64,000 nt of DNA from Alphaproteobacteria bacterium (GTDB lineage: Bacteria > Pseudomonadota > Alphaproteobacteria > RF32 > CAG-239), in the NCBI GenBank assembly GCA_017937705.1, contig JAGBDC010000029.1, forward strand, positions 27 to 64,026. Direction: 5' to 3'. Of this stretch, positions 3,149 to 45,223 are shown one piece after another. Every line of letters starts with the position of its first letter. Positions within the stretch are counted from its first letter, which is position 1. Both the position numbers and the translations under genes were made by a program. The notes under the pieces are model-generated. The model saw only the letters and a program-made list of their open reading frames with translations. It did no database searches and had not been told where the DNA came from.

Positions 3149-4081
3149 ATGTCTGTTGAAATGATAAAAGTTAAAGATATCGATGATGGAATGCGCCTTA
3201 ATCGTTGGTTTTTAAAATATTATCCTAATATAACGATGGGGAGATTACAAAAATTATTAAGAACAAAGCAAATAAAAGTTGATGGTAGTCGAGCGGAAAC
3301 ATCACTAAAATTAGCAGCCGGACAAATAATTCGTATTCCACCGCTTAAAAATGATGAAGCAGAACCGGAAAAAAGCAAAATCTTACTTTCTAAAGAAATA
3401 GAATTTATGCAAAGTTTGGTTATATTCAAAGACGATAATATTATTGCAATTAATAAGCCATCAGGTTTAGCTGTACAAGGCGGAACAAATACTCGATTTC
3501 ATGTTGACGGATTGCTCGATGCATTGATTTTTGAAAAAGAGGAGCGTCCGAGACTGGTACACAGAATAGATAAGGATACCAGCGGAATTTTATTGTTGGC
3601 ACGCAATCGCAAAACTGCAGATTTATTGACCAAAGCATTTAGGGAACATAAATTACCAAAGACATATTTAGCGCTTGTAAAAGGATGCCCTAAACAAGAA
3701 GAAGGAGAGATAAAAGCTTCTTTAGAAAAAATAGGTGAAAGAATGCAAGCTGTTACAAACGGACAAAGTGCTAAAACTTTATATAAAGTACTGGATAGTG
3801 TCGGGCAAAAATTTGCACTTGTCGAAGCCAGTCCTTTAACCGGCAGAACGCACCAGATAAGAGTTCATTTGGAACATATCGGATGCCCGATTATCGGTGA
3901 TGACAAATATTATGGTGGAGGAGAACGTATAAAATGTGAGTTGTTTGCCGATAAATTACACCTTCACGCCTACAAAATAGATTTGTCGACAATATATAAT
4001 AAAAAAGTGGTAATTAAAGCGGCTTTACCACAACATTTTTGTGATAGTTTATCTGCGACAGGCATAAGTTTTAAGGAGTAG
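3149..4081 (+). CDS. RluA-family (RluC/RluD-type) rRNA pseudouridine synthase
   Basis: N-terminal S4-like segment and the catalytic motif HRIDKDTSGILLLA. C-terminal TGRTHQIRVHL motif. Confidence 0.9.
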   Translation: MSVEMIKVKDIDDGMRLNRWFLKYYPNITMGRLQKLLRTKQIKVDGSRAETSLKLAAGQIIRIPPLKNDEAEPEKSKILLSKEIEFMQSLVIFKDDNIIAINKPSGLAVQGGTNTRFHVDGLLDALIFEKEERPRLVHRIDKDTSGILLLARNRKTADLLTKAFREHKLPKTYLALVKGCPKQEEGEIKASLEKIGERMQAVTNGQSAKTLYKVLDSVGQKFALVEASPLTGRTHQIRVHLEHIGCPIIGDDKYYGGGERIKCELFADKLHLHAYKIDLSTIYNKKVVIKAALPQHFCDSLSATGISFKE

Positions 4082-4084
4082 AAA

Positions 4085-6205
4085 ATGAAGTTTTTAAAAT
4101 GGTTTTTCGGTATACTTTTCGTTTTAATAATTGCAGTTGTTACTGCAGGATATGTCTTTTTACGTAATTTTGATTTAAATGAATATAAAGATTATGCTGA
4201 AAAAATCGTTTATGAACAAACCGGACGTAAATTATCTATCAACGGCAATGCGGAGTTAGGCATATCTTTGGTTCCCACCTTAATCATCAACGATATTACT
4301 TTTGCCAATCCGTCTTGGGCAAAAAATCCGCAAATGGCCAAAGTAGCCTCTCTCGAACTTCGTTTTTCCATTTTGCCATTGCTGTCAAAACAAATTGTCA
4401 TAAATAAGGCACTGTTAAATAATCCGCAAATTTTCTTAGAAACCGACAAAAAAGGGCAAAACAGTTGGGACTTTGAAAGAGTTAAGTCGGTTGCCTCAAA
4501 TAATAACGGATGGCTTATAAGAAATGCTAATGCCTCCGAAACTTCTAATGTATTAGAGATGTTTTCTGATATTGTTGCAAAAGAAGTTGCAATTAAATCG
4601 GGTGATTTTAACTATTTAAAACATTCCGATAATTCATTAATGACATTAAAAATAAAAAATCTCGATTTTAGCACAGAGGGAATGAATAGCCCGATGAATG
4701 TAAGTTGGGATATTGTTTTTAATGAAATGGATATTAGCGGAAAAGGTGTGCTAGGATCAATATCTGCGCTGTTTTCCGCTACCGGAGAATATCCGATTAA
4801 GCTTGATGTGAAAGCCTTGGGGATAAAGGCATTAGTCGATGCAAAAATTAAAAATATGCTAAATGACAAACTCAGCGCAACATTTAATTATAACATGTAT
4901 AATGCAGCCGGAAATATGAATATACCGGAAACAACTTTGATTGGTAGTGGAAATGCAACATTAAAAAAAGTCGCACTTAATATTGATAAGCTAGAAATTG
5001 TAAATAATATCATCAAAGGAAAAATTAATGCCGATATATCAAAAAGTATTCCGTATGCTGAAGCCGATTTGTCTTCTGATTTGTTGGATTTAACTAATTT
5101 AAATCGTTCCAAACCGACAGCGTTAAATTTTGAAATTATAAAATCAGCACATGCCAGCTCATTAGTTCCAAACGAGATGATTCCTTTTGAGTTGTTAAAA
5201 ATTGCTAATGGAAAGGCAAGTTTATCAATAAATAAACTGATAGTAAATTCGGATATAGCATTGGATAATTTTGTAATGAACGCAAATTTATCAAACGGTT
5301 TATTAAATTTAAGCAAGCTTGATTTTAATATCGGAAGCGGTAGCGCAAGTATGAGCGCCGTTGTCAATTCTGCAAACAAGTCGTTAGTTGCAGAGGGAAC
5401 AACAAAAAATATTTTGCTGACTGAACTTCACGAAGAATTTAAGATTGACGGAAGTTATGATTTTGGTTTTACATCCGGCGGTGGTACACAAACATCGTTT
5501 AATTTAAACGGGCATGGTTCAACATATCGTTCTTTGGTTGATAGTCTGAGCGGACAGATTATTGCAATAGTAGAACCGGCTGAAATACAGACGGGACATT
5601 TTAAATTTATGACCAGCAATTTTTTAAAACAATTAGCTGAAATATTAAAAATTAAGGCTGAGGGTAAAGAAAATATAAGTTTGAAATGTGCTGTCGTTAG
5701 AGCAGATTTAAAAGATGGAGTTATAAATTTTCCTAAAGGAATAGTCATAAATTCAGATAAGCTTGATTTGGTAGGAGACGGCTCGCTTACACTTAAAAAT
5801 GATAAATTAGACGTTCGTGTAAATGCTTATAGGAGCGGTGTAACCGATATGAGTATTATGCAAGCACTTTCTAATTTGATAAAAGTAAAAGGAACAATTC
5901 AAGATCCTAAAATTGCTATTGATAGAGATGGAACAATAAAAACCATAGCAGGTATTGCAATGACAGGAGGAGCCCTAAACGGAGCACAGTTATTGCTTGA
6001 TAAGGATACAGCACCATGCTATACAGCCTTAAAAGGAACAATATATAGTGATAAATTTGAAAAGCCTTCTGCAGCATCAAGTGCAACTCAAGGTGTTTAT
6101 CAAGGTGCAAGTCAAGCTGTAAATACAGGTATAGATAGGGTAAAAACAAGCACTAAAGACATAACTGATAAGGCTAAAAGCTTTCTTAACAACATTTTAA
6201 AATAA
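4085..6205 (+). CDS. AsmA-family outer-membrane biogenesis protein
   Basis: 706 aa with a single N-terminal TM helix followed by a long beta-rich periplasmic region, the typical AsmA architecture. The antisense ORFs inside it look spurious. Confidence 0.7.
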   Translation: MKFLKWFFGILFVLIIAVVTAGYVFLRNFDLNEYKDYAEKIVYEQTGRKLSINGNAELGISLVPTLIINDITFANPSWAKNPQMAKVASLELRFSILPLLSKQIVINKALLNNPQIFLETDKKGQNSWDFERVKSVASNNNGWLIRNANASETSNVLEMFSDIVAKEVAIKSGDFNYLKHSDNSLMTLKIKNLDFSTEGMNSPMNVSWDIVFNEMDISGKGVLGSISALFSATGEYPIKLDVKALGIKALVDAKIKNMLNDKLSATFNYNMYNAAGNMNIPETTLIGSGNATLKKVALNIDKLEIVNNIIKGKINADISKSIPYAEADLSSDLLDLTNLNRSKPTALNFEIIKSAHASSLVPNEMIPFELLKIANGKASLSINKLIVNSDIALDNFVMNANLSNGLLNLSKLDFNIGSGSASMSAVVNSANKSLVAEGTTKNILLTELHEEFKIDGSYDFGFTSGGGTQTSFNLNGHGSTYRSLVDSLSGQIIAIVEPAEIQTGHFKFMTSNFLKQLAEILKIKAEGKENISLKCAVVRADLKDGVINFPKGIVINSDKLDLVGDGSLTLKNDKLDVRVNAYRSGVTDMSIMQALSNLIKVKGTIQDPKIAIDRDGTIKTIAGIAMTGGALNGAQLLLDKDTAPCYTALKGTIYSDKFEKPSAASSATQGVYQGASQAVNTGIDRVKTSTKDITDKAKSFLNNILK

Positions 6206-6742: not shown

Positions 6743-7029
6743 TGAAAGAGGTTTACATAAAAATAAAAGGTCGTGTCCAAGGGATAGGATTCCGTTGGTT
6801 CGCCGTGCACGAAGCTAAGCGAATAGGCGGAATCTCCGGTTGGGTTCGCAATGAAGCTGACGGAAGTGTAGAAATTTTAATGCGTGGTGAAGAAGAAAAA
6901 ATAGAAGAGATGCTGATTTCATGCCACAAAGGACCGGCACTATCCAGAGTGGATAGTGTCGATTTTATTGTCGGTCGCAGGAGTTGTTTTTTACCACCGA
7001 TAGAAGATGGCGTATTCAAAAGAGCTTAG
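6742..7029 (+). CDS. acyP: Acylphosphatase
   Basis: Signature GRVQGIGFR and GWVRNEADGSVE. 95 aa. Confidence 0.9.
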   Translation: MKEVYIKIKGRVQGIGFRWFAVHEAKRIGGISGWVRNEADGSVEILMRGEEEKIEEMLISCHKGPALSRVDSVDFIVGRRSCFLPPIEDGVFKRA

Positions 7030-8432
7030 TCTTTAGCCTTTGATTGTTGGCAAATAATTTCAAACTCTTCTTTTTTATGATTTAACATTTCACCGTTTTC
7101 TCCTTTTAACGGCATAAACTTGCGAGCGATGGTATATTGCGGTAACAGTTTTTTGATTTCTTCAATAGGCATATTCCATGCTTGCGGATGAATACGAATT
7201 TTCTTTCCCTGTCCTGCAGAAACTTTTGGTGTTATTTCTCCGCTTGTTGCGTCTTCAAATTCGCTCATTTTAAGTTTGATAACATCTAAGCTGTTCGGAA
7301 TTAAAAATTCAAATTCTTCATCAGAATCAATATAATTTCTAATTTCGAATATAGCATCATCGCCATCCCATTTGACTATAGAACCGGCAAATAGCCAATC
7401 ACCTAAAGTGCGAGTATATTCATAGTTTTGACTGATATTGGTGAGATGTCCGTCATAAAATCCTAAACAATAACCGCGATTTTGCAAAGTATACAACTCA
7501 TTCATATATTTTTGAGCATTCCAATTTTCAGGATTTTTCCGATAGTCATCGATAGCTTGACGATAAGCACGGGCGGTAATAGCAGCATAATATTCGGTTT
7601 TATTTCTTCCTTCAATCTTTAGCGAGTGTAACCCTAATTCTAAAATTTTATCAAGACGGGGCATCATACACAAATCTTTTGAGTTCATTATATAAGCACC
7701 ATGTTCATCTTCTACAATTTCAAACAATTCACCCGGGCGAAATTCTTCTTGAACTAAAAATTCGAAAGCATCTTTATTATTTTCATTAATTTCAATATCT
7801 TTTATTGTGCCATCTTTCAAACGTAAGTGTAATTTATAATGCCAACGACAGCAATGAGCACATTTTCCTTGGTTAGCACTTCTGTCTGCCAAAAAGTTTG
7901 AGATTAAACATCTTCCGGAATAAGACATGCACATAGCTCCGTGAACAAACGTTTCTAACGGCATATCCGGACATTGACGTCGGATTTCAGCCATTTCTTC
8001 ATAAGAAACTTCTCTTCCCAAAACACATAGGTCAGCTCCCAAATCTTGCCAAAATTTAACAGTTTGATATGAACAGATGTTGGCTTGTGTAGAAACAAAA
8101 CGTTTCAATTCCGGGGCATTTTCTTTCAAATACAAAAATACTCCGGGGTCAGCAATCAAAACACCATCCGGTTTTAATTGACGAAGAGTATTAACGAAGT
8201 GAGGCAATTTGGCAACATCGTTGTTGTGAGTATATAAGTTCAAAGTCAGATATATTTTTTTCCCGTGTTGATGAACAAAATCAATACCTTCTTTGATATC
8301 ATCCAGCGAAAATTTAGACTGTGTTCGCAAACTCATATCAGGGGTTCCTGCATAAACGGCATCTGCACCGTATAAAATTGCAGTTTTAAGTTTTACTAAA
8401 GAGCCTGCCGGCAATAACAATTCTGATTTCAT
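7026..8432 (-). CDS. Peptidase U32 family protein
   Basis: N-terminus ELLLPAGSLVKLKTAILYGADAVYAG and the U32 signature ETFVHGAMCMSYSGRC. Confidence 0.9.
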   Translation of the reverse strand: MKSELLLPAGSLVKLKTAILYGADAVYAGTPDMSLRTQSKFSLDDIKEGIDFVHQHGKKIYLTLNLYTHNNDVAKLPHFVNTLRQLKPDGVLIADPGVFLYLKENAPELKRFVSTQANICSYQTVKFWQDLGADLCVLGREVSYEEMAEIRRQCPDMPLETFVHGAMCMSYSGRCLISNFLADRSANQGKCAHCCRWHYKLHLRLKDGTIKDIEINENNKDAFEFLVQEEFRPGELFEIVEDEHGAYIMNSKDLCMMPRLDKILELGLHSLKIEGRNKTEYYAAITARAYRQAIDDYRKNPENWNAQKYMNELYTLQNRGYCLGFYDGHLTNISQNYEYTRTLGDWLFAGSIVKWDGDDAIFEIRNYIDSDEEFEFLIPNSLDVIKLKMSEFEDATSGEITPKVSAGQGKKIRIHPQAWNMPIEEIKKLLPQYTIARKFMPLKGENGEMLNHKKEEFEIICQQSKAKD

Positions 8433-32348: not shown

Positions 32349-33527
32349 ATGGATATTAAACAAAAAATCAGTAATTTTTTCAGCAGTGAAGTTTCCAGCG
32401 GAATTTTAATGATTTTGTCAATGTTTGCTTCGATCTGTTTAGCAAATAGCCCGTGGCGTGAACCAATATCTCATTTTTGGGAAACGCAATTGTTTTTAGG
32501 TTTGGCAGATATAAAATTTTCCCGCTCTCTGGAGTGGTGGATTAATGATGTTTTGATGGTGTTTTTCTTTTTGCAAATTGGCTTAGAACTAAAAAGAGAA
32601 ATGAAAGAGGGATTTTTGTCAGATGCAAAACAAATCATTGTTCCGGCATTAGCGGCACTCGGAGGGATTGTGTGTCCTGCAATCATTTATGCAATTTTAA
32701 ATAATAATTCTCCTCAGTATATGAATGGCTGGGCCATTCCGACCGCAACCGATATTGCTTTTGCTGTTTGTATTTTAATGTTGGTAGGCAAAAGTGTTCC
32801 GCAGGCTGTAAAAATATTTCTGTTGGCAATTGCAATATTTGATGATTTAGGCGCTATTTTAATTATTGCCTTATTCTATAATCAAGGTGTTTCCGTTGAT
32901 TTGTTAGGCTACGCAAGTTTAACTTGTATTGCATTATATTTCTTGAATAAAATGGAAATAACGAATTTTATTCCCTATTTTATATTAGGAGTTGTTTTGT
33001 GGTATTGTTTCCTAAACGGTGGTATTCATACAACAATATCGGGTGTTGTTGTCGCTATGGCCTATCCGATGAGAGTCCATTTAAGAAAAAGTTCTCCCTT
33101 AGAAGCTTTGTCTCATAAATTAAAACCTTGGGTTGATTTTGTTATTTTACCGGTTTTTGCTTTTGCATCTGCGGGGTTATATTTAGGAGGAATAACATTA
33201 GAAACATTTACTCATACATTGACTTTAGGGATTATATTCGGTTTATTTTTTGGAAAGCAAATAGGTATATTTATGAGTACATGGATGCTTATCAAAATAG
33301 GAATTGCTTCGTTTCCCAAAGATGTTAAATTGGCGGACTTATATGGAGTTTCAGCTATTGCCGGTATAGGTTTTACAATGGCCTTGTTTGTGGGCAAATT
33401 GTCTTTGCCGGAATATATGCAAGGAGAAGTGAGATTAGGAATTTTATGTGGCTCATTACTATCGGCATTATGGGGAGCAGCCATTTTCCAATGGCAAGAA
33501 CATATCAAAAAAAGTCGTCAACAATGA
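32349..33527 (+). CDS. nhaA: Na+/H+ antiporter NhaA
   Basis: WAIPTATDIAFAV and LLAIAIFDDLGAI (the conserved Asp pair). About 12 TM helices. Confidence 0.95.
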   Translation: MDIKQKISNFFSSEVSSGILMILSMFASICLANSPWREPISHFWETQLFLGLADIKFSRSLEWWINDVLMVFFFLQIGLELKREMKEGFLSDAKQIIVPALAALGGIVCPAIIYAILNNNSPQYMNGWAIPTATDIAFAVCILMLVGKSVPQAVKIFLLAIAIFDDLGAILIIALFYNQGVSVDLLGYASLTCIALYFLNKMEITNFIPYFILGVVLWYCFLNGGIHTTISGVVVAMAYPMRVHLRKSSPLEALSHKLKPWVDFVILPVFAFASAGLYLGGITLETFTHTLTLGIIFGLFFGKQIGIFMSTWMLIKIGIASFPKDVKLADLYGVSAIAGIGFTMALFVGKLSLPEYMQGEVRLGILCGSLLSALWGAAIFQWQEHIKKSRQQ

Positions 33528-33569
33528 CGACTTTTGAACTGTGGCTGGAGATGACTTGCAATCCTCGAG
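33525..33569. repeat. att-like direct repeat 1 (distal island border): terminator arm, tRNA-Gln 3' core and a conserved tail
   Basis: TGACGACTTTTGAACTGTGGCTGG matches 42538-42561 except for one base. It is followed by AGATGACTTGCAATCCTCGAG. The hairpin at 33513-33532 doubles as the nhaA terminator. Confidence 0.8.
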
Positions 33570-33603
33570 TAATAGAAGAGACTTTTTTGTTAATTTTATT
33601 ACG

Positions 33604-34278
33604 TTAAAAATAATCAGCCTTTGTCATCGTTGGGTCTTTTTCTACTGTTTTAATGTATTGTTTCATTTCTTTAGAAATAGGAATTTTTAGATTTTTAAGC
33701 TTACGATAAAGCACAGTACCGTGCTTGCAAATATAATATGTTAATTCAATAGTATCATAGTAATAACCAACTTTCTTTACATTCATAATGGCATCAAGTA
33801 ATAATTCTTGAACAAGAGAAATCTGATTTAATGATTGTTTCCTATTAATGTCTAGAGGATTGCAAATTCGTATATTTCCTCTATTTGATTTTCTCACTCC
33901 AACATAAATTGAATCTTCTTTTTTTGTATTATATTCTTTATCTAAAATATGCTTATATCTTAATTCTGTTTCTTTTGAACCACAATAAACAAAGTCATCA
34001 ATCGCATTTTGTTGCTTAAATATATGTGAATTAATATTATTAAGTTTACTTTCAAATTCATAATTACATGTATTAGTATTATTAATTATTTCTCCATAAA
34101 AGGCGTGCTCATTTAATAGCTGCATTTTGCCAAATTCTTCTAATGCAACAACAGAAATATAATAAGCTGTTGAATACGATTTGTTTCTATATAATATCCA
34201 AGAATCATTGTGTAGTTTTATAGCATTTTGGAACGAGAGAATAGCCATCTCTGCTTTTGTTTTATAAGATAATTGCAT
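33604..34278 (-). CDS. AbiV-like abortive-infection protein (tentative)
   Basis: The N-terminal helix pair AILSFQNAIKLHNDSWILYRNKSYSTAYYISVVALEEFGKMQLL matches my recollection of the AbiV family pattern. 224 aa. Confidence 0.55.
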   Translation of the reverse strand: MQLSYKTKAEMAILSFQNAIKLHNDSWILYRNKSYSTAYYISVVALEEFGKMQLLNEHAFYGEIINNTNTCNYEFESKLNNINSHIFKQQNAIDDFVYCGSKETELRYKHILDKEYNTKKEDSIYVGVRKSNRGNIRICNPLDINRKQSLNQISLVQELLLDAIMNVKKVGYYYDTIELTYYICKHGTVLYRKLKNLKIPISKEMKQYIKTVEKDPTMTKADYF

Positions 34279-34461: not shown

Positions 34462-34569
34462 TGTGTCACACCTTTGTGTCTCACTTGTGTAACATACCAA
34501 AAAAGTGCTATTTTGAGGTGGTAAAAATAAAAAAAAGTCGTTGAGAAATCAATGACTTATTCAATTTCT

Positions 34570-34597
34570 TGGCTGGAGACGACTTGCAATCCTCGAG
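34570..34597. repeat. att-like direct repeat 2 (pseudo tRNA 3' core plus conserved tail)
   Basis: TGGCTGGAGACGACTTGCAATCCTCGAG, preceded by its own hairpin and T-run (34535-34558). Confidence 0.7.
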
Positions 34598-34614
34598 ATG
34601 AACTCTTGGTGATT

Positions 34615-35678: not shown

Positions 35679-35919
35679 TTCAAAACTCCTTTAAATTACT
35701 AATAGTTTATGATGTTAAATTTTTTATTTCAACATAAATTTTTATTCATCTACCAACCTTTCACATAGCTATGTTACAAGTCCAACCACTGCAAATTTTT
35801 ACATAGGTTCATTTTTATGCTCAAAAAGGCTAAAATTTGATAAGTTATTGAAAAATATAGAAGTGAGTTCAAAGATACTGCAAAACTAGCCTTCAAAATA
35901 TATTCATCTTCGAACTAGC

Positions 35920-36001
35920 TTAAGTGCTTGAAAATAAAAGAAAAAGTCGCCATTTCTGACGACTTTTGAACTCTGGCTGGAGTGAGCTTGCGGTTTTCGA
36001 G
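35920..36001. repeat. att-like direct repeat 3 (tRNA-proximal flank, terminator, pseudo 3' core and tail)
   Basis: 35920-35983 aligns with 42501-42564 at 57 of 64 positions by manual alignment. The tail is GAGTGAGCTTGCGGTTTTCGAG. Confidence 0.8.
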
Positions 36002-36022
36002 ATAAAATTTTGGATTTTTATA

Positions 36023-36595: not shown

Positions 36596-36681
36596 TTTCT
36601 TACCTTTATTGTTAACTACACTGATTATTTAGGTAAAAAACTTATAAAGCGCAAGAGATTTGTATAAAAATAAATTTTAAC

Positions 36682-36708
36682 TTTTGGGTGTTAGGAATCC
36701 GAGGTTAA
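36682..36708. repeat. Conserved intergenic box 1, copy A
   Basis: TTTTGGGTGTTAGGAATCCGAGGTTAA. Near-identical to 40118-40145. Confidence 0.7.
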
Positions 36709-36742
36709 AGTAACTTTTATTTTTAAATAACAAAAGTTTTTC

Positions 36743-36790
36743 TGCTCTATATGAGCAATTTTGGTTTTGATATATGTTTGATTATAAAAA
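36743..36790. repeat. Conserved intergenic box 2, copy A
   Basis: TGCTCTATATGAGCAATTTTGGTTTTGATATATGTTTGATTATAAAAA. About 80% identical to 41277-41325 by eye. Confidence 0.65.
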
Positions 36791-36929
36791 TTAAAATCCA
36801 ACATTATGGGTGTTTTATAATTAATTAAAAAAATATAAATTGTGTATAATTAAAAATTTTTTATTAACTTTACACATCTGTGTAATATTATCTTCTCAAA
36901 AGTGTAAAATATTTGAAGGAAAGATTAAT

Positions 36930-38747
36930 ATGGATAACATAGATAAAAAAATATTAAAGATTCATAATTATATATACGCCAATGATGGACTAAGTAATGC
37001 AGAAACGCTAACCGAATTTCTAAAAATATTTTATTGTAAGATATTAGATGAAAATGATGGTAATATGTTTTTATTACTAACAAATGAAGCTGATATTCTA
37101 AGACGAGTTAACAATTTATATAAATCTTTCCAAACTAAGCTAAATAATGTTGTGAAAACGAGTGAAAAAATAAATTTAAAAGATAGAACAATAATCTTTA
37201 TAATATCTGAACTGAGAGATATAAATATAAAAAACATATCCTCAGATATAAAAGGACATATAATGCAAAAGATTATTGATCGTTCTTATAGAGAAAGTAG
37301 AGGACAATTTTTCACACCAGCACCAGTGGTTGATTTTATAGTTAAAATGATCGCCCCTAAAAAGAATGAACTTGGCTCAGATCCTGCTTCTGGAACAGGT
37401 GGATTTTTATTTGCTGCTTTGGATTATATATCAAATACGAAGAAAATAACGATTGAAGATATAAAAAACATGTATTTTTCTGATATTAGTAAAAATTTGA
37501 TACAATTAATCCTTATGAGAATGATGTTTGAATACTCTATTGATGATTTCAACTATTATACTGAAGATAGTATAGCTAAAGACGTAACACCTAAATATGA
37601 TTTTGTAATCACAAATCCTCCTTTTGGCACACAAGGAAAAGTTGATGATCCTAAAATACTAAGTAAATATGATCTTTCATATGATGGAAAAAAATACTTA
37701 TCATCTCAAGTACCTGATATTTTATTTGTTGAACAAATCATTAAAAGCTTGAAATATGGTGGACGAGCAGCTGTTGTATTACCTGATGGAGATTTTGAAA
37801 ATCCATCCTTACAGTATTTTAGAGAATTTCTTGTTAATAATGTAAAAATAGATGCTATTGTGTCGCTACCGGATGGAACATTTATTCCATATGGTACAGG
37901 TGTAAAATCTAGCATAATATTTTTCACAAAGCAAAATAGTACTTATTTGAACAAAATAAAAAATGAAAATTATTCAATTTTTTATGCACGTATACATAAA
38001 TTAGGTTATACCTTTTCCAAACACTCTAAAAGTGTATATACCAAAGAAGGAGCGATAGATGAAGATTATTCTCAGGTTTTAGATGCTTATAAAAAAGGTA
38101 ATTATAATGAGAATAGTTATCTTGTTTCTATAAATGAAATTGAAAGAAATAATTATATATTAGCAGAACATTTTTATTCCCCTGTTTATAGTCAATTAAT
38201 TAATTCTATTAAACAAAATAAATATGCCATGTTAAAAGATTTAGTATCTTTCCGCAACTCAAAGGAAAAAATTAATATTGACGAAAAGTATACATACATA
38301 GAGATAGGAGATGTTAGCCCATATATTAATGAAATCACAAATAGTACTAGCTTATTAGGGGATGAATTACCTAGCAGAGCGAGTTATATCGTGCACACAG
38401 GAGATGTTATTGTGGCCGTAGCAGGAAATGCTATAGGTACAGAAAAACATGCTAAAGCAATTGTATCAGATAAGTATGATGGGTGTATATGTACTAATGG
38501 ATTTATAGTATTGTCGCCTATTAAAGTTTCAGCATATTTTATATTATCTTTTCTTAATAGTGAGTATTTTCTGAAACAAGTCTTGAAATACAAATACGGT
38601 ACAGCAATCCCTTGTATATCAAAAGAAGATTTAGGCAATGTTGTTGTTCCAATACCTGATGATGAAAAAATGAGAGAAATAGAAAATAGAATAAAGAGAG
38701 CTTATAATCTTAGAAAAGAGGCTAATGAACTCTTATATGCAGTTTAG
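36930..38747 (+). CDS. N6-adenine DNA methyltransferase fused to an HsdS-like target-recognition domain
   Basis: Motif I DPASGTGGFL and motif IV NPPFG. The C-terminal ~200 aa resemble one type I S-subunit TRD (LKDLVSFRNSKEKIN...YIEIGDV...). ATG at 36930 with GAAGGA upstream. Confidence 0.85.
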   Translation: MDNIDKKILKIHNYIYANDGLSNAETLTEFLKIFYCKILDENDGNMFLLLTNEADILRRVNNLYKSFQTKLNNVVKTSEKINLKDRTIIFIISELRDINIKNISSDIKGHIMQKIIDRSYRESRGQFFTPAPVVDFIVKMIAPKKNELGSDPASGTGGFLFAALDYISNTKKITIEDIKNMYFSDISKNLIQLILMRMMFEYSIDDFNYYTEDSIAKDVTPKYDFVITNPPFGTQGKVDDPKILSKYDLSYDGKKYLSSQVPDILFVEQIIKSLKYGGRAAVVLPDGDFENPSLQYFREFLVNNVKIDAIVSLPDGTFIPYGTGVKSSIIFFTKQNSTYLNKIKNENYSIFYARIHKLGYTFSKHSKSVYTKEGAIDEDYSQVLDAYKKGNYNENSYLVSINEIERNNYILAEHFYSPVYSQLINSIKQNKYAMLKDLVSFRNSKEKINIDEKYTYIEIGDVSPYINEITNSTSLLGDELPSRASYIVHTGDVIVAVAGNAIGTEKHAKAIVSDKYDGCICTNGFIVLSPIKVSAYFILSFLNSEYFLKQVLKYKYGTAIPCISKEDLGNVVVPIPDDEKMREIENRIKRAYNLRKEANELLYAV

Positions 38748-39718
38748 CCTTCTCTATAATCAATTTGACTTTCATCATATTCTACAGTTTTAGGATGAGT
38801 TTCTTCTATACACTCATTTAGATCAAGATACCATGGATGTCTTATAGATAAATTATCTTTTATTCCTGGAATTATAATATCAATAGTGTAATTCTGATAT
38901 AAATGATTAGGTGAAGTTGGGGAATGAGAGATTATATCAGGATTGACAAAGACAAATAAATGTTCTCCTAGTCTTTGGTACAAATCAACAGCTAGAATAG
39001 AAAAATCAGAGGATATGGGAGCAGCTTGTTTAATACCAGTGGCGGTATCAGTACGATTACTTGGTTTATGTGTTTGTAATATTTTATATAATCCCGTTCC
39101 ATTTCTAAAAGCGGTTTCTGTTAGTAGATTTTCGTCACAGTTATATACAAATTTTTTGAGTTCACTTACTGAATGAAAAAATGGCGACAAATCAACATAA
39201 TCAGGACCAGGAAAATCTGTGTTCCAATTAAAGTCAGGAAAAGTTTTCTGAGGATTATTCTTTTCCCATTTAGCTTTTGCTGTTAAGTATGTAGATTTAC
39301 CCTTATTATATATCTTTTGTTTATCAATATCGATGAATTTCTTTAGAGTATTGAAGGCTTGATCTTTAGATAGTTTTTTAAGGTGTGTATCTTCTGTTTT
39401 AGCTCCTCTGAATTCAGAATTAGTTTTTAACCCTTTGCACTCTACAACCCAATAAGTTGTATCTCCTTTTTTGTTTATTAGAAAATCGCCTTTATACCCT
39501 ATTTTCTTCTCGTCAAATCCACCAGCTGGTTTTTCCTTTATTCGCATTACCTCATAGCCTTTTTGTGTTAAATATTTGACTAATAATAATTCAGAAATTG
39601 CTCCATGAATGTACCCTAAAGCACTGGGGCTCATTTTTAGAGCATTAAAAAACATTTTTTCATCAACAGCAAAGTGTTTTTTCAACCACAAAGATAAATT
39701 TTCATTCCCGTTTTGCAT
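38744..39718 (-). CDS. Putative PD-(D/E)xK restriction endonuclease partner of the methyltransferase
   Basis: GYKGDFLINKKGDTTYWVVECKGLK gives a D...E-x-K motif. Convergent with the MTase, with stop codons overlapping by 4 nt. Start chosen at MQNGNE, preceded by AAGGAGA. Confidence 0.6.
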   Translation of the reverse strand: MQNGNENLSLWLKKHFAVDEKMFFNALKMSPSALGYIHGAISELLLVKYLTQKGYEVMRIKEKPAGGFDEKKIGYKGDFLINKKGDTTYWVVECKGLKTNSEFRGAKTEDTHLKKLSKDQAFNTLKKFIDIDKQKIYNKGKSTYLTAKAKWEKNNPQKTFPDFNWNTDFPGPDYVDLSPFFHSVSELKKFVYNCDENLLTETAFRNGTGLYKILQTHKPSNRTDTATGIKQAAPISSDFSILAVDLYQRLGEHLFVFVNPDIISHSPTSPNHLYQNYTIDIIIPGIKDNLSIRHPWYLDLNECIEETHPKTVEYDESQIDYREG

Positions 39719-39952
39719 GCTATTCTCCTTAAACGTCATTTTAAATACAGAGATAAGTAGAGTAAGAAGTTTTTTCATGAAAGAAAAATCCTTTTGTTAC
39801 AAAATCTTCATTATGATATAATAATGTATTTAATAAATCGTAAAATGACTCTTCAATATCTAAACTTCAAAAAATCTCTCCTCTCTTCAATAGCATAAAA
39901 AACAGGATCAAACTTCTTAACTCATTGATTGTGTTAGATTCTTGATAAAATA

Positions 39953-40003
39953 AGTTCGAAGATTGTCCCGTTTTATGCTTTTTTCATATCAAACATTCGA
40001 ACT
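39953..40003. repeat. Copy of the tRNA-proximal flank (GTTCGAA...TTCGAAC inverted-repeat segment)
   Basis: AGTTCGAAGATTGTCCCGT...AACATTCGAAC aligns with 42447-42496 at roughly three-quarters identity by eye. Confidence 0.6.
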
Positions 40004-40061
40004 CGCCGAAAGCCTTGGAAACAAAAGAAAAAAGCCACCTCAAAAGGTGGCTTATCTGCTC

Positions 40062-40089
40062 TGGCTGGAGTGAGCTTGCAATTCTCGAG
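40062..40089. repeat. att-like direct repeat 4 (pseudo tRNA 3' core plus tail)
   Basis: TGGCTGGAGTGAGCTTGCAATTCTCGAG, preceded by the hairpin AAGCCACC-tcaaaa-GGTGGCTT. The tail continues ATAAAATTTTGG as at 36002. Confidence 0.75.
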
Positions 40090-40117
40090 ATAAAATTTTG
40101 GTTTTTGAGCCTGCTAA

Positions 40118-40145
40118 CTTTGGGGTGCTAGGAATCCGAGGTTAA
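40118..40145. repeat. Conserved intergenic box 1, copy B
   Basis: CTTTGGGGTGCTAGGAATCCGAGGTTAA. Confidence 0.7.
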
Positions 40146-40230
40146 TTTAAAATCAGTTAAACACTTGCGTTTAAAGAAATGAATCCCTAAATAGATTATA
40201 TACTTTATGAACTTTTTGAAAGAATAAAAA

Positions 40231-41268
40231 ATGACACAAAATACCAGTGCAAAAACATCTGATGAAATCTATATAAAAACAAATAAAAACAATGGGTTAA
40301 CATTAAAATCCGCTGCTGTTGAAATCACCCCATCCCAACTATCATTATCTGGAATTACAGAAGTTGATGCATACAAAGAAATTGATGGAATTGAAATGGG
40401 GGTTCTTGATGATGGAACGGCCTTTCTTGGTCAAAGAGGTTTGGCCGCTTTCTGTGATTTAGAAAACAATGGAGCACTCTCTATACTATCTAAGGAATGG
40501 GAAGAAGAACGCGATACAACCACAAAAGAACGTTTAATATTTATCAGAAATTACTTGTATGATAAAGGATATAAGCAAAATTCATTATTTATTGAGTTAA
40601 AGAAGAATAATACAATTATATATGCTTATCCTGATATCGTTTGCATGGCAATTTTGGAATATTATGCTTTTGAAACTAAGGAACCGAAGGAAAGAGCCAA
40701 GAAAAACTTCAGACTTCTTGCAAGAAATAGCTTTAGAGAATTTATTTATCAGGCAGTTGGATACAATCCAGAGGAAAGAGAATTAAATCGTTGGAAATAC
40801 TTTTTAGATAGAATTGATGCCAATTATGACAATCCACCTTCTGGATATTTCAGCATATTTCAAGAAATGGTAAAATATACACATTTCCTTATAAAAAATA
40901 GATTTACTGTTAATGATAAAACAATTCCGGATTTAAGTGTAGGAAAATTTTGGGGAACGTATTGGACAGACAATAAATTAAATGCAAAATTTGGTGAAAG
41001 GGTTCCATATATGCATAATTACCCTAATTATTATCCGCAGTCATCTTCTAACCCTCAACATCCTTGGGCATATCCAAATGAATCTCTAGCAGAGTTTAGA
41101 AAATGGCTAGAAAATACTTATTTTGTCTCTAAATTTCCAAATTATCTAAAGGAAAAGGCTAAAAAAGAGCAGATTAGTGTTCAGACTAAAGAAAAGATTT
41201 TGATGGCACTAAATAATATGATTGATATAGAAAATAAAACAAAACTGTTGCCTTCTAAAGATAAGTAA
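40231..41268 (+). CDS. Hypothetical protein, 345 aa (N-terminal segment weakly reminiscent of phage P63C/antirepressor-type proteins)
   Basis: Clean ORF. GVLDDGTAFLGQRGLAAFCD resembles the P63C-type N-terminal motif from memory. No catalytic motif recognised. Confidence 0.65.
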   Translation: MTQNTSAKTSDEIYIKTNKNNGLTLKSAAVEITPSQLSLSGITEVDAYKEIDGIEMGVLDDGTAFLGQRGLAAFCDLENNGALSILSKEWEEERDTTTKERLIFIRNYLYDKGYKQNSLFIELKKNNTIIYAYPDIVCMAILEYYAFETKEPKERAKKNFRLLARNSFREFIYQAVGYNPEERELNRWKYFLDRIDANYDNPPSGYFSIFQEMVKYTHFLIKNRFTVNDKTIPDLSVGKFWGTYWTDNKLNAKFGERVPYMHNYPNYYPQSSSNPQHPWAYPNESLAEFRKWLENTYFVSKFPNYLKEKAKKEQISVQTKEKILMALNNMIDIENKTKLLPSKDK

Positions 41269-41276
41269 TTTTATTT

Positions 41277-41325
41277 TGCTCTATACATATGAATTTGGTT
41301 TTGATATAGGTTTTATTAGAAAAAA
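41277..41325. repeat. Conserved intergenic box 2, copy B
   Basis: TGCTCTATACATATGAATTTGGTTTTGATATAGGTTTTATTAGAAAAA. Confidence 0.65.
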
Positions 41326-41442
41326 TAGATTTGGCTATTATAGGGTAATTTTTGATAAGTTAATAATCTTATCAAATTTATTGTTTTTAAACCATTGATG
41401 TTTTATTCTGCCACTGGGTTTATTTTAAGAGAGTAGGTTGTC

Positions 41443-42369
41443 ATGGCACTTAATTTAAGTAAAACAGTTGTAGATATATTAAAACATAATCCTGATAAGT
41501 ATTTTACTGCAAGGCAATTAGCAGAATGGGTTTGGAATAATAAAAAAGATGAATGTTTAGCCAAGATGGAAAGAAGTAAAGCTACTGTTGTACCTATAGA
41601 TACAGAAGATGCTTTACTTAATCAACTAGTAGCTGAAATTGGTGCATATAAGAGGCGTATTTTGGCATTATCATCTAATGTGAAAATTACAGCAGAACGC
41701 CCGAGAAAGTATTATTATTCTGAAAAGACAGAGGCTCAAGAAATAAAAGATGCAGAGAAAAGCTCGAGAACAAACGGACAACCAGAACACGATTCTTATC
41801 CTCGTTTATGTGAATACCTATACAATGAACTAAATATATATCCTAAAAGAATTGATGAGAGAAAATCCTCAAATTCAAAAGGAAGTAACGGTAATAAATG
41901 GTTGCACCCTGATATTGTAGGCTTAAAAAATCTTTCAGATGGTTGGGATAATGATGTTATTTCTTGCGCAGGTAAACATGCTTTTAACAAGACTTCACTG
42001 TGGTCATTTGAAGTGAAAATAAAAATTAATTTATCAAATGTTAGAGAATATTTTTTCCAAACTGTTTCAAATTCTAGTTGGGCGAATTTTTCCTATCTTG
42101 TGGCTCAAACAATTGATGAAAAAGCGATGGATGAGCTACGTATATTATGTGGTGGTCATAATATAGGTTTAATCCAGCTAAATTGTGAAAATCCAACAGA
42201 AAGTCAAATATTAATTCCTGCAATAGAGAAAAAAGAACTTGATTGGGATATGATTGACCGTATTACTAAAGAAAATCCTGATTTTAAGGATTTTGTAAAT
42301 TTAATTACAGAATTTTATCAAACAGGAAAAATCAAACCGAGAGATTGGGATATTCCAGAAGAAAGATAA
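41443..42369 (+). CDS. Hypothetical wHTH (HARE-HTH/Mrr_N-like) protein with a PD-(D/E)xK-like C-terminal domain
   Basis: The N-terminus VVDILKHNPDKYFTARQLAEWVW looks like a winged helix. The C-terminus KWLHPDIVG...SLWSFEVKIK...FFQTVSNSSWANFSYLV gives a D...E-x-K...Q pattern. Confidence 0.65.
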   Translation: MALNLSKTVVDILKHNPDKYFTARQLAEWVWNNKKDECLAKMERSKATVVPIDTEDALLNQLVAEIGAYKRRILALSSNVKITAERPRKYYYSEKTEAQEIKDAEKSSRTNGQPEHDSYPRLCEYLYNELNIYPKRIDERKSSNSKGSNGNKWLHPDIVGLKNLSDGWDNDVISCAGKHAFNKTSLWSFEVKIKINLSNVREYFFQTVSNSSWANFSYLVAQTIDEKAMDELRILCGGHNIGLIQLNCENPTESQILIPAIEKKELDWDMIDRITKENPDFKDFVNLITEFYQTGKIKPRDWDIPEER

Positions 42370-42446
42370 TTTTATTAAATTTTCTCCTATGTTATGGATA
42401 TCGAAAATTCCTAATACCTTGATTTTTTTATCTTCTCTATAAAATT

Positions 42447-42496
42447 AGTTCGAAGATTATCCGGTGTAAGGCATATTTCATACCGAACATTCGAAC
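42447..42496. repeat. tRNA-proximal flank, reference copy (GTTCGAA...TTCGAAC inverted repeat)
   Basis: AGTTCGAAGATTATCCGGTGTAAGGCATATTTCATACCGAACATTCGAAC. Partly repeated at 39953-40003 and 35905-35920. Confidence 0.6.
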
Positions 42497-42500
42497 CAAA

Positions 42501-42561
42501 TTAAGTGCTTGATATAAAAAGAAAAAATCGCCATTTCTGACGATTTTTGAACTGTGGCTGG
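42501..42561. repeat. att-like direct repeat 5 (authentic: terminator plus 3' end of the intact tRNA-Gln)
   Basis: TTAAGTGCTTGATATAAAAAGAAAAAATCGCCATTTCTGACGATTTTTGAACTGTGGCTGG. The hairpin and T-run read on the minus strand directly after the tRNA. Confidence 0.85.
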
Positions 42562-42629
42562 GGTGGCTGGATTCGAACCAACGAATGACGATACCAAAAA
42601 CCGTTGCCTTACCACTTGGCGACACCCCA
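42555..42629 (-). tRNA. tRNA-Gln (anticodon UUG), CCA encoded
   Basis: The reverse complement TGGGGTGTCGCCAAGTGGTAAGGCAACGGTTTTTGGTATCGTCATTCGTTGGTTCGAATCCAGCCACCCCAGCCA folds as a cloverleaf. Acceptor is TGGGGTG/CACCCCA, the anticodon stem is ACGGT/ATCGT with loop TTTTGGT, and the T-arm is GTTGG-TTCGAAT-CCAGC. Confidence 0.9.
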
Positions 42630-43667: not shown

Positions 43668-44432
43668 ATGAAAGTTACTGTTTTAGGTTCGGGTTCGGCT
43701 TATGGTTGTCCTATGGTATTTAATAAATGGCGAAATGCAAATCCGTCTAATCCTAAAAATATTCGCAGTCGTGCATCTGTTCTTATTGAAACGCAGGGCA
43801 AATATTTTTTGATAGACGCCGGTCCGGAGTTTAGGCAACAAATCAATGATAATAATATACCGGATATAAATGCTGTTTTTATAACTCACGGACACTACGA
43901 CCATATTGCCGGTATTCCCGAATTGCCGAGAGCATCGAAAAACATAGGACACCCGATAGAAATATGGGCAAGCCAAGAAACAATGAACGAATTGAAATCA
44001 ACATTTTATTATTTATTTAATGGAGAAGAACCAGAAGGTGTCGGATTGCAGTGGAAAATATTGCCTAATGACGGAGTTTTTGAAAGTTGCGGAGTTAGAT
44101 TTGAAACATTTCAAGTTCCTCACCATAGTTTAAGATGTTCCGCTTTTCGTTGTGAAGATTTTGTGTATGTTGCTGATTGGCAAGATTTGCCCGAACAGGC
44201 TTTGGGGCATTTGCAAGATTTAGACGTTTTATTAATTGAGTGTAATAATGGTCTTTATCCCGAAGTGAACGGACATGGCGATTTAGAAAAAATCAAACAT
44301 TTTACTTCAATTATAAAACCTCAAAAAACTATTTTAACTCATTTGTCAGCTCGTGTCGATTTCGAAGAAACAAAACAGGAGCTTCCCACATCATTTGAAT
44401 TAGCATTCGACGGCATGATAGTAAATGTTTAG
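43668..44432 (+). CDS. MBL-fold metallo-hydrolase (PhnP/RNase Z-like)
   Basis: ITHGHYDH (the HxHxDH motif). 254 aa. Confidence 0.8.
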   Translation: MKVTVLGSGSAYGCPMVFNKWRNANPSNPKNIRSRASVLIETQGKYFLIDAGPEFRQQINDNNIPDINAVFITHGHYDHIAGIPELPRASKNIGHPIEIWASQETMNELKSTFYYLFNGEEPEGVGLQWKILPNDGVFESCGVRFETFQVPHHSLRCSAFRCEDFVYVADWQDLPEQALGHLQDLDVLLIECNNGLYPEVNGHGDLEKIKHFTSIIKPQKTILTHLSARVDFEETKQELPTSFELAFDGMIVNV

Positions 44433-44450
44433 TTCGTTATGTCAATTCAA

Positions 44451-44813
44451 CTAAAAAAATATTCCGCCAAATTTTACAGCTAAAAACTCTAATATAATCG
44501 GGGATATAATCCACCAATAAGCCCATTTAGATTTTTTATATAAACACCAAAAAGTTACAAATAAGGATATTAGATAAATTGTTATACATATATGACATAA
44601 AAAAATAAAAGTTTCTTTTGAGTGAAGATACCATTCCGGAGCATCAGGTTCTATAATTTTAACATAATTTCCGAGCTTTATTTGTTCTATAACATTAAAT
44701 TCATATTTAATAAAATAAAAATATAGAGCAATAAATGAGGTAAAAAATACATATTTTATTATGACTGTCTTTTTGTTCCAAAGAAACATAAAAATCTTTT
44801 TTACGTTGTTCAT
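44451..44813 (-). CDS. Small 3-TM membrane protein, paralog 1 (candidate immunity)
   Basis: Start taken at MNNVKKIFMFLWNKKT, preceded by GGAGG. Near-identical central region to the next gene. Confidence 0.6.
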   Translation of the reverse strand: MNNVKKIFMFLWNKKTVIIKYVFFTSFIALYFYFIKYEFNVIEQIKLGNYVKIIEPDAPEWYLHSKETFIFLCHICITIYLISLFVTFWCLYKKSKWAYWWIISPIILEFLAVKFGGIFF

Positions 44814-45223
44814 ATAAAATCCTCCAACGTGTTTAGATGATATATTTAAAACAAATTTAGGAATATATTTCCAAATTTTACGACTAAATATTTTATTAAG
44901 AATGGAGATATAATCCACCAATAAGCCCATTTAGATTTTTTGTACAAACACCAAAAAGTTACAAATAAGGATATTAGATAAATTGTTATACATATATGAC
45001 ATAAAAAAATAAAAGTTTCTTTTGAGTGAAGGTACCATTCTGGAGCGTCAGGTTCTATAATTTTAACATAATTTCCGAGTTTTGTTTGTTCTATAACATT
45101 AAAATTGTGTCTGATTAAAGCCATAAATAGAGCGATGAATAGAGCAAAAAATACATATTTTATTATGGTAGTCTTTTTGTTCCAAAGAAACATAAAAATC
45201 TTTTTTACGTTGTTCATATAAAA
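44503..45223. repeat. Tandem duplication, period about 403 bp (units 44503-44819 and 44906-45223)
   Basis: Long stretches are identical between the two units, e.g. GATATAATCCACCAATAAGCCCATTTAGATTTTTT and AAAAAGTTACAAATAAGGATATTAGATAAATTGTTATACATATATGACATAAAAAAATAAAAGTTTCTTTTGAGTGAAG. Confidence 0.85.
44846..45217 (-). CDS. Small 3-TM membrane protein, paralog 2 (candidate immunity)
   Basis: Same MNNVKKIFMFLWNKKT start, preceded by AGAGG. Immediately downstream of the Tlde1-like gene. Confidence 0.6.
   Translation of the reverse strand: MNNVKKIFMFLWNKKTTIIKYVFFALFIALFMALIRHNFNVIEQTKLGNYVKIIEPDAPEWYLHSKETFIFLCHICITIYLISLFVTFWCLYKKSKWAYWWIISPFLIKYLVVKFGNIFLNLF

Follow-up and report, generated by a model that had tools for sequence, protein, structure and literature searches.

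A BstA-family gene and an HrgA-family gene share a small cassette at a tRNA-Gln hot spot of a gut alphaproteobacterium

We analysed positions 40090 to 42446 of a 64,000-nucleotide (nt) stretch of DNA, hereafter the window, from an uncultured gut alphaproteobacterium (contig JAGBDC010000029.1). A previous reading, made from sequence alone, had proposed that the two genes found there form an undescribed two-gene defence system. This proposal does not hold. The locus is a small cassette whose two defence-type genes are independent of each other, both being members of already known kinds. One, bstA, is a catalogued abortive infection (Abi) system, and the fold of the product of the other, hrgA, was predicted in 2010. 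We consider it likely that positions 40064-42477 are a 2.4-kb mobile cassette without a recombinase gene, which carries the two as independent single-gene defence-type determinants. A defence role for at least one of the two genes is very likely. Both open reading frames (ORFs) are present as previously described, on the same strand and beside the tRNA gene, whose 3' end points toward bstA-hrgA and the island to which they belong:

40231-41268, plus strand: bstA, 345 amino acids (aa), BstA-family abortive-infection protein with a KilA-N-like N-domain and BstA_C
41443-42369, plus strand: hrgA, 308 aa, HrgA/COG2958/DUF511 family, with a winged-helix N-domain and a PD-(D/E)xK nuclease domain, both predicted
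42555-42629, minus strand: tRNA-Gln(UUG), found by ARAGORN; Rfam tRNA, 56.7 bits

For each of the two families we surveyed 80 species-representative loci, using six-frame ORFs within 6 kb on either side and profile Hidden Markov Models (HMMs) of both families. BstA was found in 0 of the 80 HrgA loci, with the same outcome by tblastn, and HrgA in 0 of the 80 BstA loci. The sequence-only reading, which envisaged a sensor paired with an effector, had itself named genomic linkage of the homologues as the point on which this idea should be judged. Since the homologues are unlinked, bstA and hrgA are not a conserved two-gene system. Individual loci, given here by L numbers, tell the same story. An identical HrgA protein from another metagenome (L006) has a SocA/Panacea gene upstream, not bstA. 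This antitoxin-domain gene (L006:297-800), probably part of a toxin-antitoxin module, fills the slot upstream of hrgA, and the content of the cassette therefore differs between strains. At L008, hrgA is preceded by a homologue of the window's 190-aa gene. DNA homology of the window to L006 and L008, both of which lack bstA, begins at 41291, 23 nt past the bstA stop codon. Moreover, HrgA copies that are 79-96% identical occur in many contexts, some of them abutting tRNA-Gln, and never with BstA, and a BstA relative of 75% identity lies near tRNA-Met without HrgA.

The pair as such was found in the window's own gut alphaproteobacterial lineage only, in two contexts. The closest BstA relative, which is 92% identical and has 57 block records in the contig collection, precedes an HrgA that shares 96% identity with that of the window. 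The block shared with L088-L090 corresponds to 40064-42477 of the window (2.4 kb, 86% nt identity). There, aminoglycoside-phosphotransferase and acetyltransferase genes adjoin one end of it and GmrSD_N and other ATPase genes the opposite end, with no tRNA. How the two genes came together can be read from the leader elements of the cassette:

40115-40150, plus strand: leader element D9, sharing 89% identity with 36678-36713 of the adjacent module
40151-40230, plus strand: bstA-specific upstream region, outside the shared leader and within the ~1.12-kb bstA insertion; presumed promoter and expected site of any aba-like element (see below)
41291-41442, plus strand: hrgA leader, containing repeat D5 (TTTTGGTTTTGATATAGGTTT...TATAGGG); presumed own promoter of hrgA

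The hrgA leader (~150 nt) is conserved in four hrgA loci, including bstA-less ones, and a version of it is found at 36727-36810, upstream of the methyltransferase (MTase) gene of the neighbouring module. In this MTase module and in L008, D9 and D5 form one uninterrupted leader. In the bstA-hrgA module (module D), a ~1.12-kb segment comprising bstA and 80 nt of its own upstream sequence takes the place of ~25 nt between the two elements. Because this segment interrupts a leader that is contiguous elsewhere, bstA looks like a discrete gene-sized insertion (~1.1 kb) into the leader of an hrgA cassette. Since it formed, the pair has remained together in the lineage; local functional interplay of the two genes is conceivable but not required by the data.

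The 345-aa protein is, judged by its sequence, a full-length member of the BstA family, because five lines of evidence agree. It matches the PADLOC BstA profile (PDLC02356) with an E-value of 2.5e-109 over profile positions 12-289 of 292, and PHROG 6287 ('BstA abortive infection system, replication inhibitor') with an E-value of 4.5e-95. PF26567 (BstA_C) is the precomputed Pfam assignment for exactly this product. In a tblastn search, its identity to BstA of the Salmonella phage BTP1 is 39.5% over 86% of its length (E 3e-60), which is comparable with the 41.7-48.4% identity of validated homologues to BstA-BTP1. Finally, GVLDDGTAFLGQRGLAAFCD (residues 57-76) is the best-conserved N-terminal motif of the family here: across 54 homologues, G57, G62 and G70 do not vary, and L59 and L66 hardly do. 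This is the very segment that the sequence-only reading had singled out, and it is thus real and conserved; the accompanying statement that neither gene matches a named defence system is incorrect for this protein. The local Pfam and NCBIfam copies gave no match for it, and the KilA-N Pfam model did not match it either.

BstA is a single-protein abortive-infection system, which co-localises with replicating phage DNA and stops its replication (Owen 2021, PMC8585504). It has a KilA-N-like N-domain, detected solely via remote-homology methods, and a second, C-terminal domain (PMC8585504). The present protein is predicted to share this layout. Its AlphaFold2 (AF2) model, with a mean predicted local distance difference test score (pLDDT) of 82, has a beta-rich N-domain (residues 45-134; the KilA-N-like region spans residues ~45-150) followed by a helical C-domain corresponding to BstA_C. 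Searching the PDB with this model gave no significant fold match (best E 0.43) and thus adds no hint as to mechanism; at the sequence level, too, neither BstA nor HrgA obtained a meaningful PDB match, whether single sequences or profiles were used. Unlike the BTP1-type protein, the one encoded in the window has an additional N-terminal tail of ~43 residues, which is modelled with low confidence. Three BstA homologues, from BTP1, Klebsiella and E. coli, each protect singly (PMC8585504), and these three are ~40% identical to the present one.

As to genomic setting, 79% of BstA homologues are found in prophages and 21% are prophage-independent (PMC8585504). The present copy is one of the prophage-independent minority, since it is found in an island in which no phage genes were detected between nhaA and tRNA-Gln. 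Unlike typical bstA genes, it lies neither in a prophage nor downstream of a phage repressor gene, and it thus places BstA outside prophages in a chromosomal array of defence cassettes of uncultured gut Alphaproteobacteria. In prophages, self-immunity of the carrier is conferred by aba, a 63-bp DNA element that overlaps the 5' end of bstA (PMC8585504). No aba-like element was recognised here: the best direct repeat across positions -60 to +60 of bstA, AATAAAAA, was equalled or beaten in 309 of 1000 shuffles. As aba elements are homologue-specific, the sequence by itself says little on this point.

The 308-aa protein is a member of the HrgA/COG2958/DUF511 family, with a winged helix and a PD-(D/E)xK fold as predicted from sequence conservation and structural modelling. 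It has 3872 database relatives at E<=1e-3, which carry the NCBI and UniRef names 'HrgA protein' or 'COG2958 family protein', and so it is not the uncharacterised gene product it had been taken for. HrgA-annotated genes on Helicobacter plasmids match its residues 107-298 with 34% identity (E 2e-22). The HPD...FEVK...Q spacing that had been pointed out for this protein is real, and P156, D157, E190, V191, K192 and Q206 are invariant in 51 homologues. In the AF2 model (pLDDT 88, predicted template modelling score 0.83), residues 114-225 have the secondary-structure order alpha-beta-beta-beta-alpha-beta, in which PD156-157 is placed just before the second strand, ExK190-192 in the third strand and Q206 in the next helix. 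Foldseek returned 3dnx as the best PDB match (E 8.8e-4) and FokI, EcoT38I and NucC as weaker ones, and it matched the N-domain to forkhead and other winged-helix structures. In the viral structure library BFVD, the matches were MmcB-like PD-(D/E)XK proteins (E 3e-5 to 7e-4).

These results agree with the fold prediction published for HrgA in 2010, in which DUF511/PF04373/COG2958 proteins were assigned an N-terminal winged helix and a canonical PD-(D/E)XK domain with 3dnx as the best PDB relative (PMC3045609, PMC3424549). Together with the residue conservation, they uphold the domain layout that the sequence-only reading had proposed for this protein. Concerning the winged helix, Laganeckas 2010 (PMC3045609) gave 2krc as the closest match for the family by HHsearch and COMA. 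When we aligned the present N-domain with the N-terminal domain of B. subtilis RNA polymerase delta, which is of the HARE-HTH type, hhalign gave a non-significant probability of 0.3%, and no Pfam HARE-HTH model matched. No match was obtained for the protein in PADLOC, PHROGs, NCBIfam or the Pfam copy used, in which PF04373 (DUF511) itself did not match at E<=1.

The comparison with Mrr holds with respect to layout only. As in Mrr-type and HARE-HTH-REase type IV enzymes, a predicted winged helix, thought to read DNA or its modifications in those enzymes, precedes a PD-(D/E)xK nuclease domain in the product of a single gene that is associated with defence islands. The layout can thus be called Mrr-like, as had been suggested. 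Mrr_N and Mrr_cat, in contrast, did not match in Pfam or NCBIfam at E<=1, nor was there a match in PADLOC, and the HrgA motif is PD...ExK and not the D...QxK of Mrr. The protein resembles HrgA/COG2958/DUF511 members in its size (about 310 aa in the family), the N-terminal winged helix and the C-terminal PD-(D/E)xK domain with all three motifs. It is, however, distant in sequence from Helicobacter HrgA, lacks an adjacent partner methyltransferase and is found here together with bstA, at a hot spot next to tRNA-Gln. In the HrgA family, no methyltransferase is positionally conserved alongside the gene (PMC3045609).

The surroundings of hrgA in other genomes were analysed in a census of 146 immediate neighbours from 80 species. 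Among them are six BrxL, six HsdM and three type I R/ResIII proteins, as well as two each with KAP, SWI2/SNF2, NYN and HNH domains. In six species hrgA lies 22 nt downstream of brxL, a gene of bacteriophage exclusion (BREX) systems. In L058, L060, L070, L082 and L084 (brxL 3934-5979, hrgA from 6001), which stem from several beta- and gammaproteobacterial genera, it is placed as though it closed the BREX operon. In Vibrio parahaemolyticus, a conjugative plasmid of the MOBH type (NZ_CP150859.1; L195, 5980-10153) carries hrgA 17 nt upstream of a lone type I R-subunit gene, and this pair adjoins qnrS and a gene for an NYN-domain protein. HrgA was found on 31 plasmids in total, and there was no match to it among 50,697 phage records. 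Two further neighbours recur: a Phage_lysozyme-family gene upstream of hrgA on the opposite strand in at least eight diverse species (L030-L033, L036, L045, L046; about 5480-5923, minus strand), and a conserved gene for a protein of ~97 aa downstream of hrgA in about a dozen loci (about 6951-7244, minus strand).

In H. pylori, hrgA takes the place of the restriction enzyme gene hpyIIIR; neither gene is essential, and no restriction role has been demonstrated for H. pylori HrgA (PMC3045609). The present hrgA is likewise found in a variable locus rich in restriction-modification (RM) genes, in which it is exchanged against other genes. Furthermore, an auxiliary effector function at BREX and Dnd loci has been proposed for HARE-HTH-REase fusions (PMC12839542, PMC10853773). 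The placement of hrgA next to brxL, hsdM/hsdR and type I R genes, and in the hpyIIIR slot, supports a role as a restriction-type auxiliary effector that possibly discriminates modified DNA. HrgA/COG2958 has thousands of members, is found time and again beside BREX and type I RM loci and lacks a PADLOC model, which makes it a reasonable candidate for validation.

The cassette is one of several modules arranged in a tandem stack in an island that extends from nhaA (32349-33527) to tRNA-Gln. They contain AbiV; two small genes (151 and 194 aa); a 190-aa bPH-domain protein; an N6-MTase/S fusion together with a 344-aa gene; and bstA-hrgA. The RM and AbiV neighbours are as the sequence-only reading had described them, and it was also right to regard the module as a separate cassette at a tRNA hot spot rich in defence genes, with chosen borders (40090-42446) that come close to those of the shared block (40064-42477). 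The features that delimit the cassette are:

39910-40002, unstranded: left copy of the boundary repeat D4 (AGTTCGAAGATTGTCC...AACATTCGAAC), a 93-nt direct repeat, which ends the preceding RM module on the right
40032-40053, minus strand: terminator-like hairpin with A/T runs on its flanks, counterpart of the tRNA-Gln terminator (terminator scan)
40059-40106, plus strand: left cassette boundary, an 11-nt copy of the tRNA-Gln 3' end, TGGCTGGAGTG, followed by the conserved arm AGCTTGCAATTCTCGAGATAAAATTTTGG
42404-42496, unstranded: right copy of D4, at the right end of the bstA-hrgA cassette; the block in common with L088 stops within it, at 42477
42523-42548, minus strand: terminator hairpin between hrgA and tRNA-Gln, part of the repeated core (terminator scan)

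The two D4 copies, which mark the right ends of modules C and D, are 77% identical, and the D4 core AGTTCGAAGATTRTCC occurs at just these two places in the window. The repeated core of the boundaries consists of the tRNA-Gln terminator, ~11 nt of the tRNA 3' end and the arm (TGGCTGGAGTG followed by AGCTTGCAATTCTCGAG...). Copies of this direct repeat are located at 33539, 34567, 35971 and 40059, the genuine tRNA end being at 42555, and the corresponding module-boundary intervals are 33477-33586, 34567-34614, 35909-36018, 39996-40106 and 42490-42565. The L088 block has the same left motif behind a different terminator hairpin, and its right end lies within D4. We considered that the boundary copies might be pseudo-tRNAs and rejected this: they hold ~11 nt of the tRNA 3' end only, and neither ARAGORN nor Rfam finds a tRNA there. 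An Rfam scan of the island detected the tRNA only, plus a sub-threshold ctRNA_p42d match on the 40032-40053 hairpin, so that the boundary motif does not correspond to any known RNA.

The arm motif is present in about 13 species-level metagenome-assembled genomes (MAGs) of gut alphaproteobacteria, in which DUF4238 and an MmeI-like methyltransferase are among the cargo next to it. Several related MAGs from gut alphaproteobacteria encode large serine recombinases (Resolvase+Recombinase+Zn_ribbon) near the motif, sometimes two in tandem (L188:4274-5923, minus strand; L007:8915-11896; L181; L182; L193; L011). At L007 such a gene lies about 2 kb from an hrgA copy of 96% identity. This proximity suggests that serine recombinases may drive a shuffling of the cassettes. 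No serine-recombinase homologue was found anywhere in the 64-kb window and no integrase in the island. An integrase of the island's own was considered and rejected, as the two large ORFs at its far end encode FadL/Toluene_X and NhaA and the window holds no recombinase. We infer that small defence cassettes are probably shuffled at the tRNA-Gln hot spot, possibly with the help of a trans-acting recombinase or via the conserved boundaries, at which homologous recombination could take place.

Integrative elements are known to accumulate in tandem at tRNA genes, as cis-mobilisable elements and tycheposon-like arrays show. The island resembles such arrays in its stacked modules with partial copies of the tRNA 3' end, in its mostly defence-related cargo and in that some modules have no recombinase. 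It differs from them in that the recombinases near the motif in relatives are of the large serine type and not tyrosine integrases, with none in the window. The stack of small recombinase-less modules with bounds resembling a tRNA 3' end may thus illustrate how single defence genes are shuffled.

Combining these results, the explanation we favour is as follows. The cassette would be one of the modules stacked between nhaA and tRNA-Gln, each bounded by the core of tRNA-Gln terminator and 3' end plus the arm. Its two genes would have separate upstream regions, bstA having been inserted into the conserved hrgA leader. By analogy to the validated homologues, the BstA protein would be made constitutively, gather at replicating phage DNA and block its replication, and the cell would die without releasing progeny. 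Sensitivity to BstA would depend on the phage, and an aba-like immunity would have no clear relevance outside a prophage. The fold, motifs and genomic setting of HrgA make a Mg2+-dependent DNA endonuclease most likely, one that would bind or discriminate its target DNA by means of the winged helix. It would probably act as a stand-alone or plug-in restriction-type effector, which is possibly sensitive to DNA modification.

A number of observations weigh against this explanation. Within the lineage, bstA and hrgA stay paired on the same strand, 174-209 nt apart, in two genomic contexts. No intrinsic terminator was predicted between them in the terminator scan, and the region has 16 sigma-70-like promoter matches versus 15 expected from shuffled sequence, so that read-through co-transcription of bstA and hrgA is possible. 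No prophage surrounds bstA, unlike most of its homologues in PMC8585504, and at its start no aba-like terminal direct repeats above chance were found in the window, L088 or L091. Concerning hrgA, most neighbours in the census of 80 species are not defence genes, and the literature searched contains no published defence phenotype for any HrgA, DUF511 or COG2958 member. The persistence of the pair as one block of about 86% nt identity in two contexts, in the same orientation and with no predicted terminator in between, speaks for the alternative that BstA and HrgA are a genuine two-gene system in this lineage. BstA might then, for example, sense or mark replicating phage DNA and HrgA be the nuclease effector, a division of labour that would suit a protein with a domain for DNA binding but none recognisable for catalysis, whose model lacks a significant PDB match. 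We nevertheless consider such a system very unlikely. The 160 species-level loci show no co-occurrence of the two genes either way, the identical HrgA of L006 has a different gene upstream, and the BstA relative of 75% identity does without HrgA. Moreover, hrgA retains its own conserved leader, and for BstA homologues of ~40% identity there are three cases of protection without any partner (PMC8585504).

An alternative that concerns hrgA alone is that it is not an immune gene and that bstA is the sole defence gene of the cassette. HrgA could then be a selfish or addictive nuclease, an MmcB-like enzyme of DNA repair or processing, or a hitch-hiking DNA-binding regulator. Its nearest structures, MmcB-like 'DNA repair' proteins and 3dnx, are in line with this, as are the frequent housekeeping neighbours (e.g., aldehyde dehydrogenase and Pyr_redox), the recurrent phage-lysozyme and ~97-aa genes, and the dispensability of H. 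pylori hrgA and hpyIIIR with no demonstrated restriction role for HrgA (PMC3045609). However, in different genera hrgA repeatedly lies close beside brxL, type I RM and other defence-type genes, in H. pylori it occupies the place of a restriction enzyme gene (PMC3045609), its catalytic residues are strictly conserved, and in the window it is part of a stack of AbiV, RM and BstA modules. On balance, we regard a non-immune HrgA as improbable. Going beyond the two independent determinants that we favour, HrgA/COG2958 might be a genuine anti-phage or anti-plasmid nuclease, guided by its winged helix, that the catalogues have missed, acting solo or as a plug-in beside BREX, type I RM or BstA, and the cassette a natural dual-defence unit that moves via tRNA-like boundary sites. 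This wider proposal is quite possible, and we lean slightly against it at present.

Two neighbouring modules of the island contain genes with family matches to defence proteins:

33604-34278: HEPN_AbiV gene, family match in the island scan
36840-38747, plus strand: N6_Mtase+S fusion, an N6-adenine MTase fused to an S (specificity) domain

The 344-aa gene (38744-39778, minus strand) overlaps the MTase/S fusion gene by 4 nt, tail to tail, and has no family match; it is a candidate for a novel restriction endonuclease partner of the fusion protein. Just past the tRNA, on the chromosomal side, 43668-44432 encodes a protein of the metallo-beta-lactamase fold with a precomputed Pfam match to Anti-Pycsar_Apyc1 (PF23023), which may simply be a housekeeping relative. 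A direct duplication of ~300 nt (44426-45129; start-to-start distance 404 nt, 84% identity) gives rise to two paralogous genes for small hydrophobic, apparently membrane, proteins. Downstream of these paralogues are Tlde1-domain, SPM and ankyrin-repeat genes, with which they possibly form an effector/immunity cluster.

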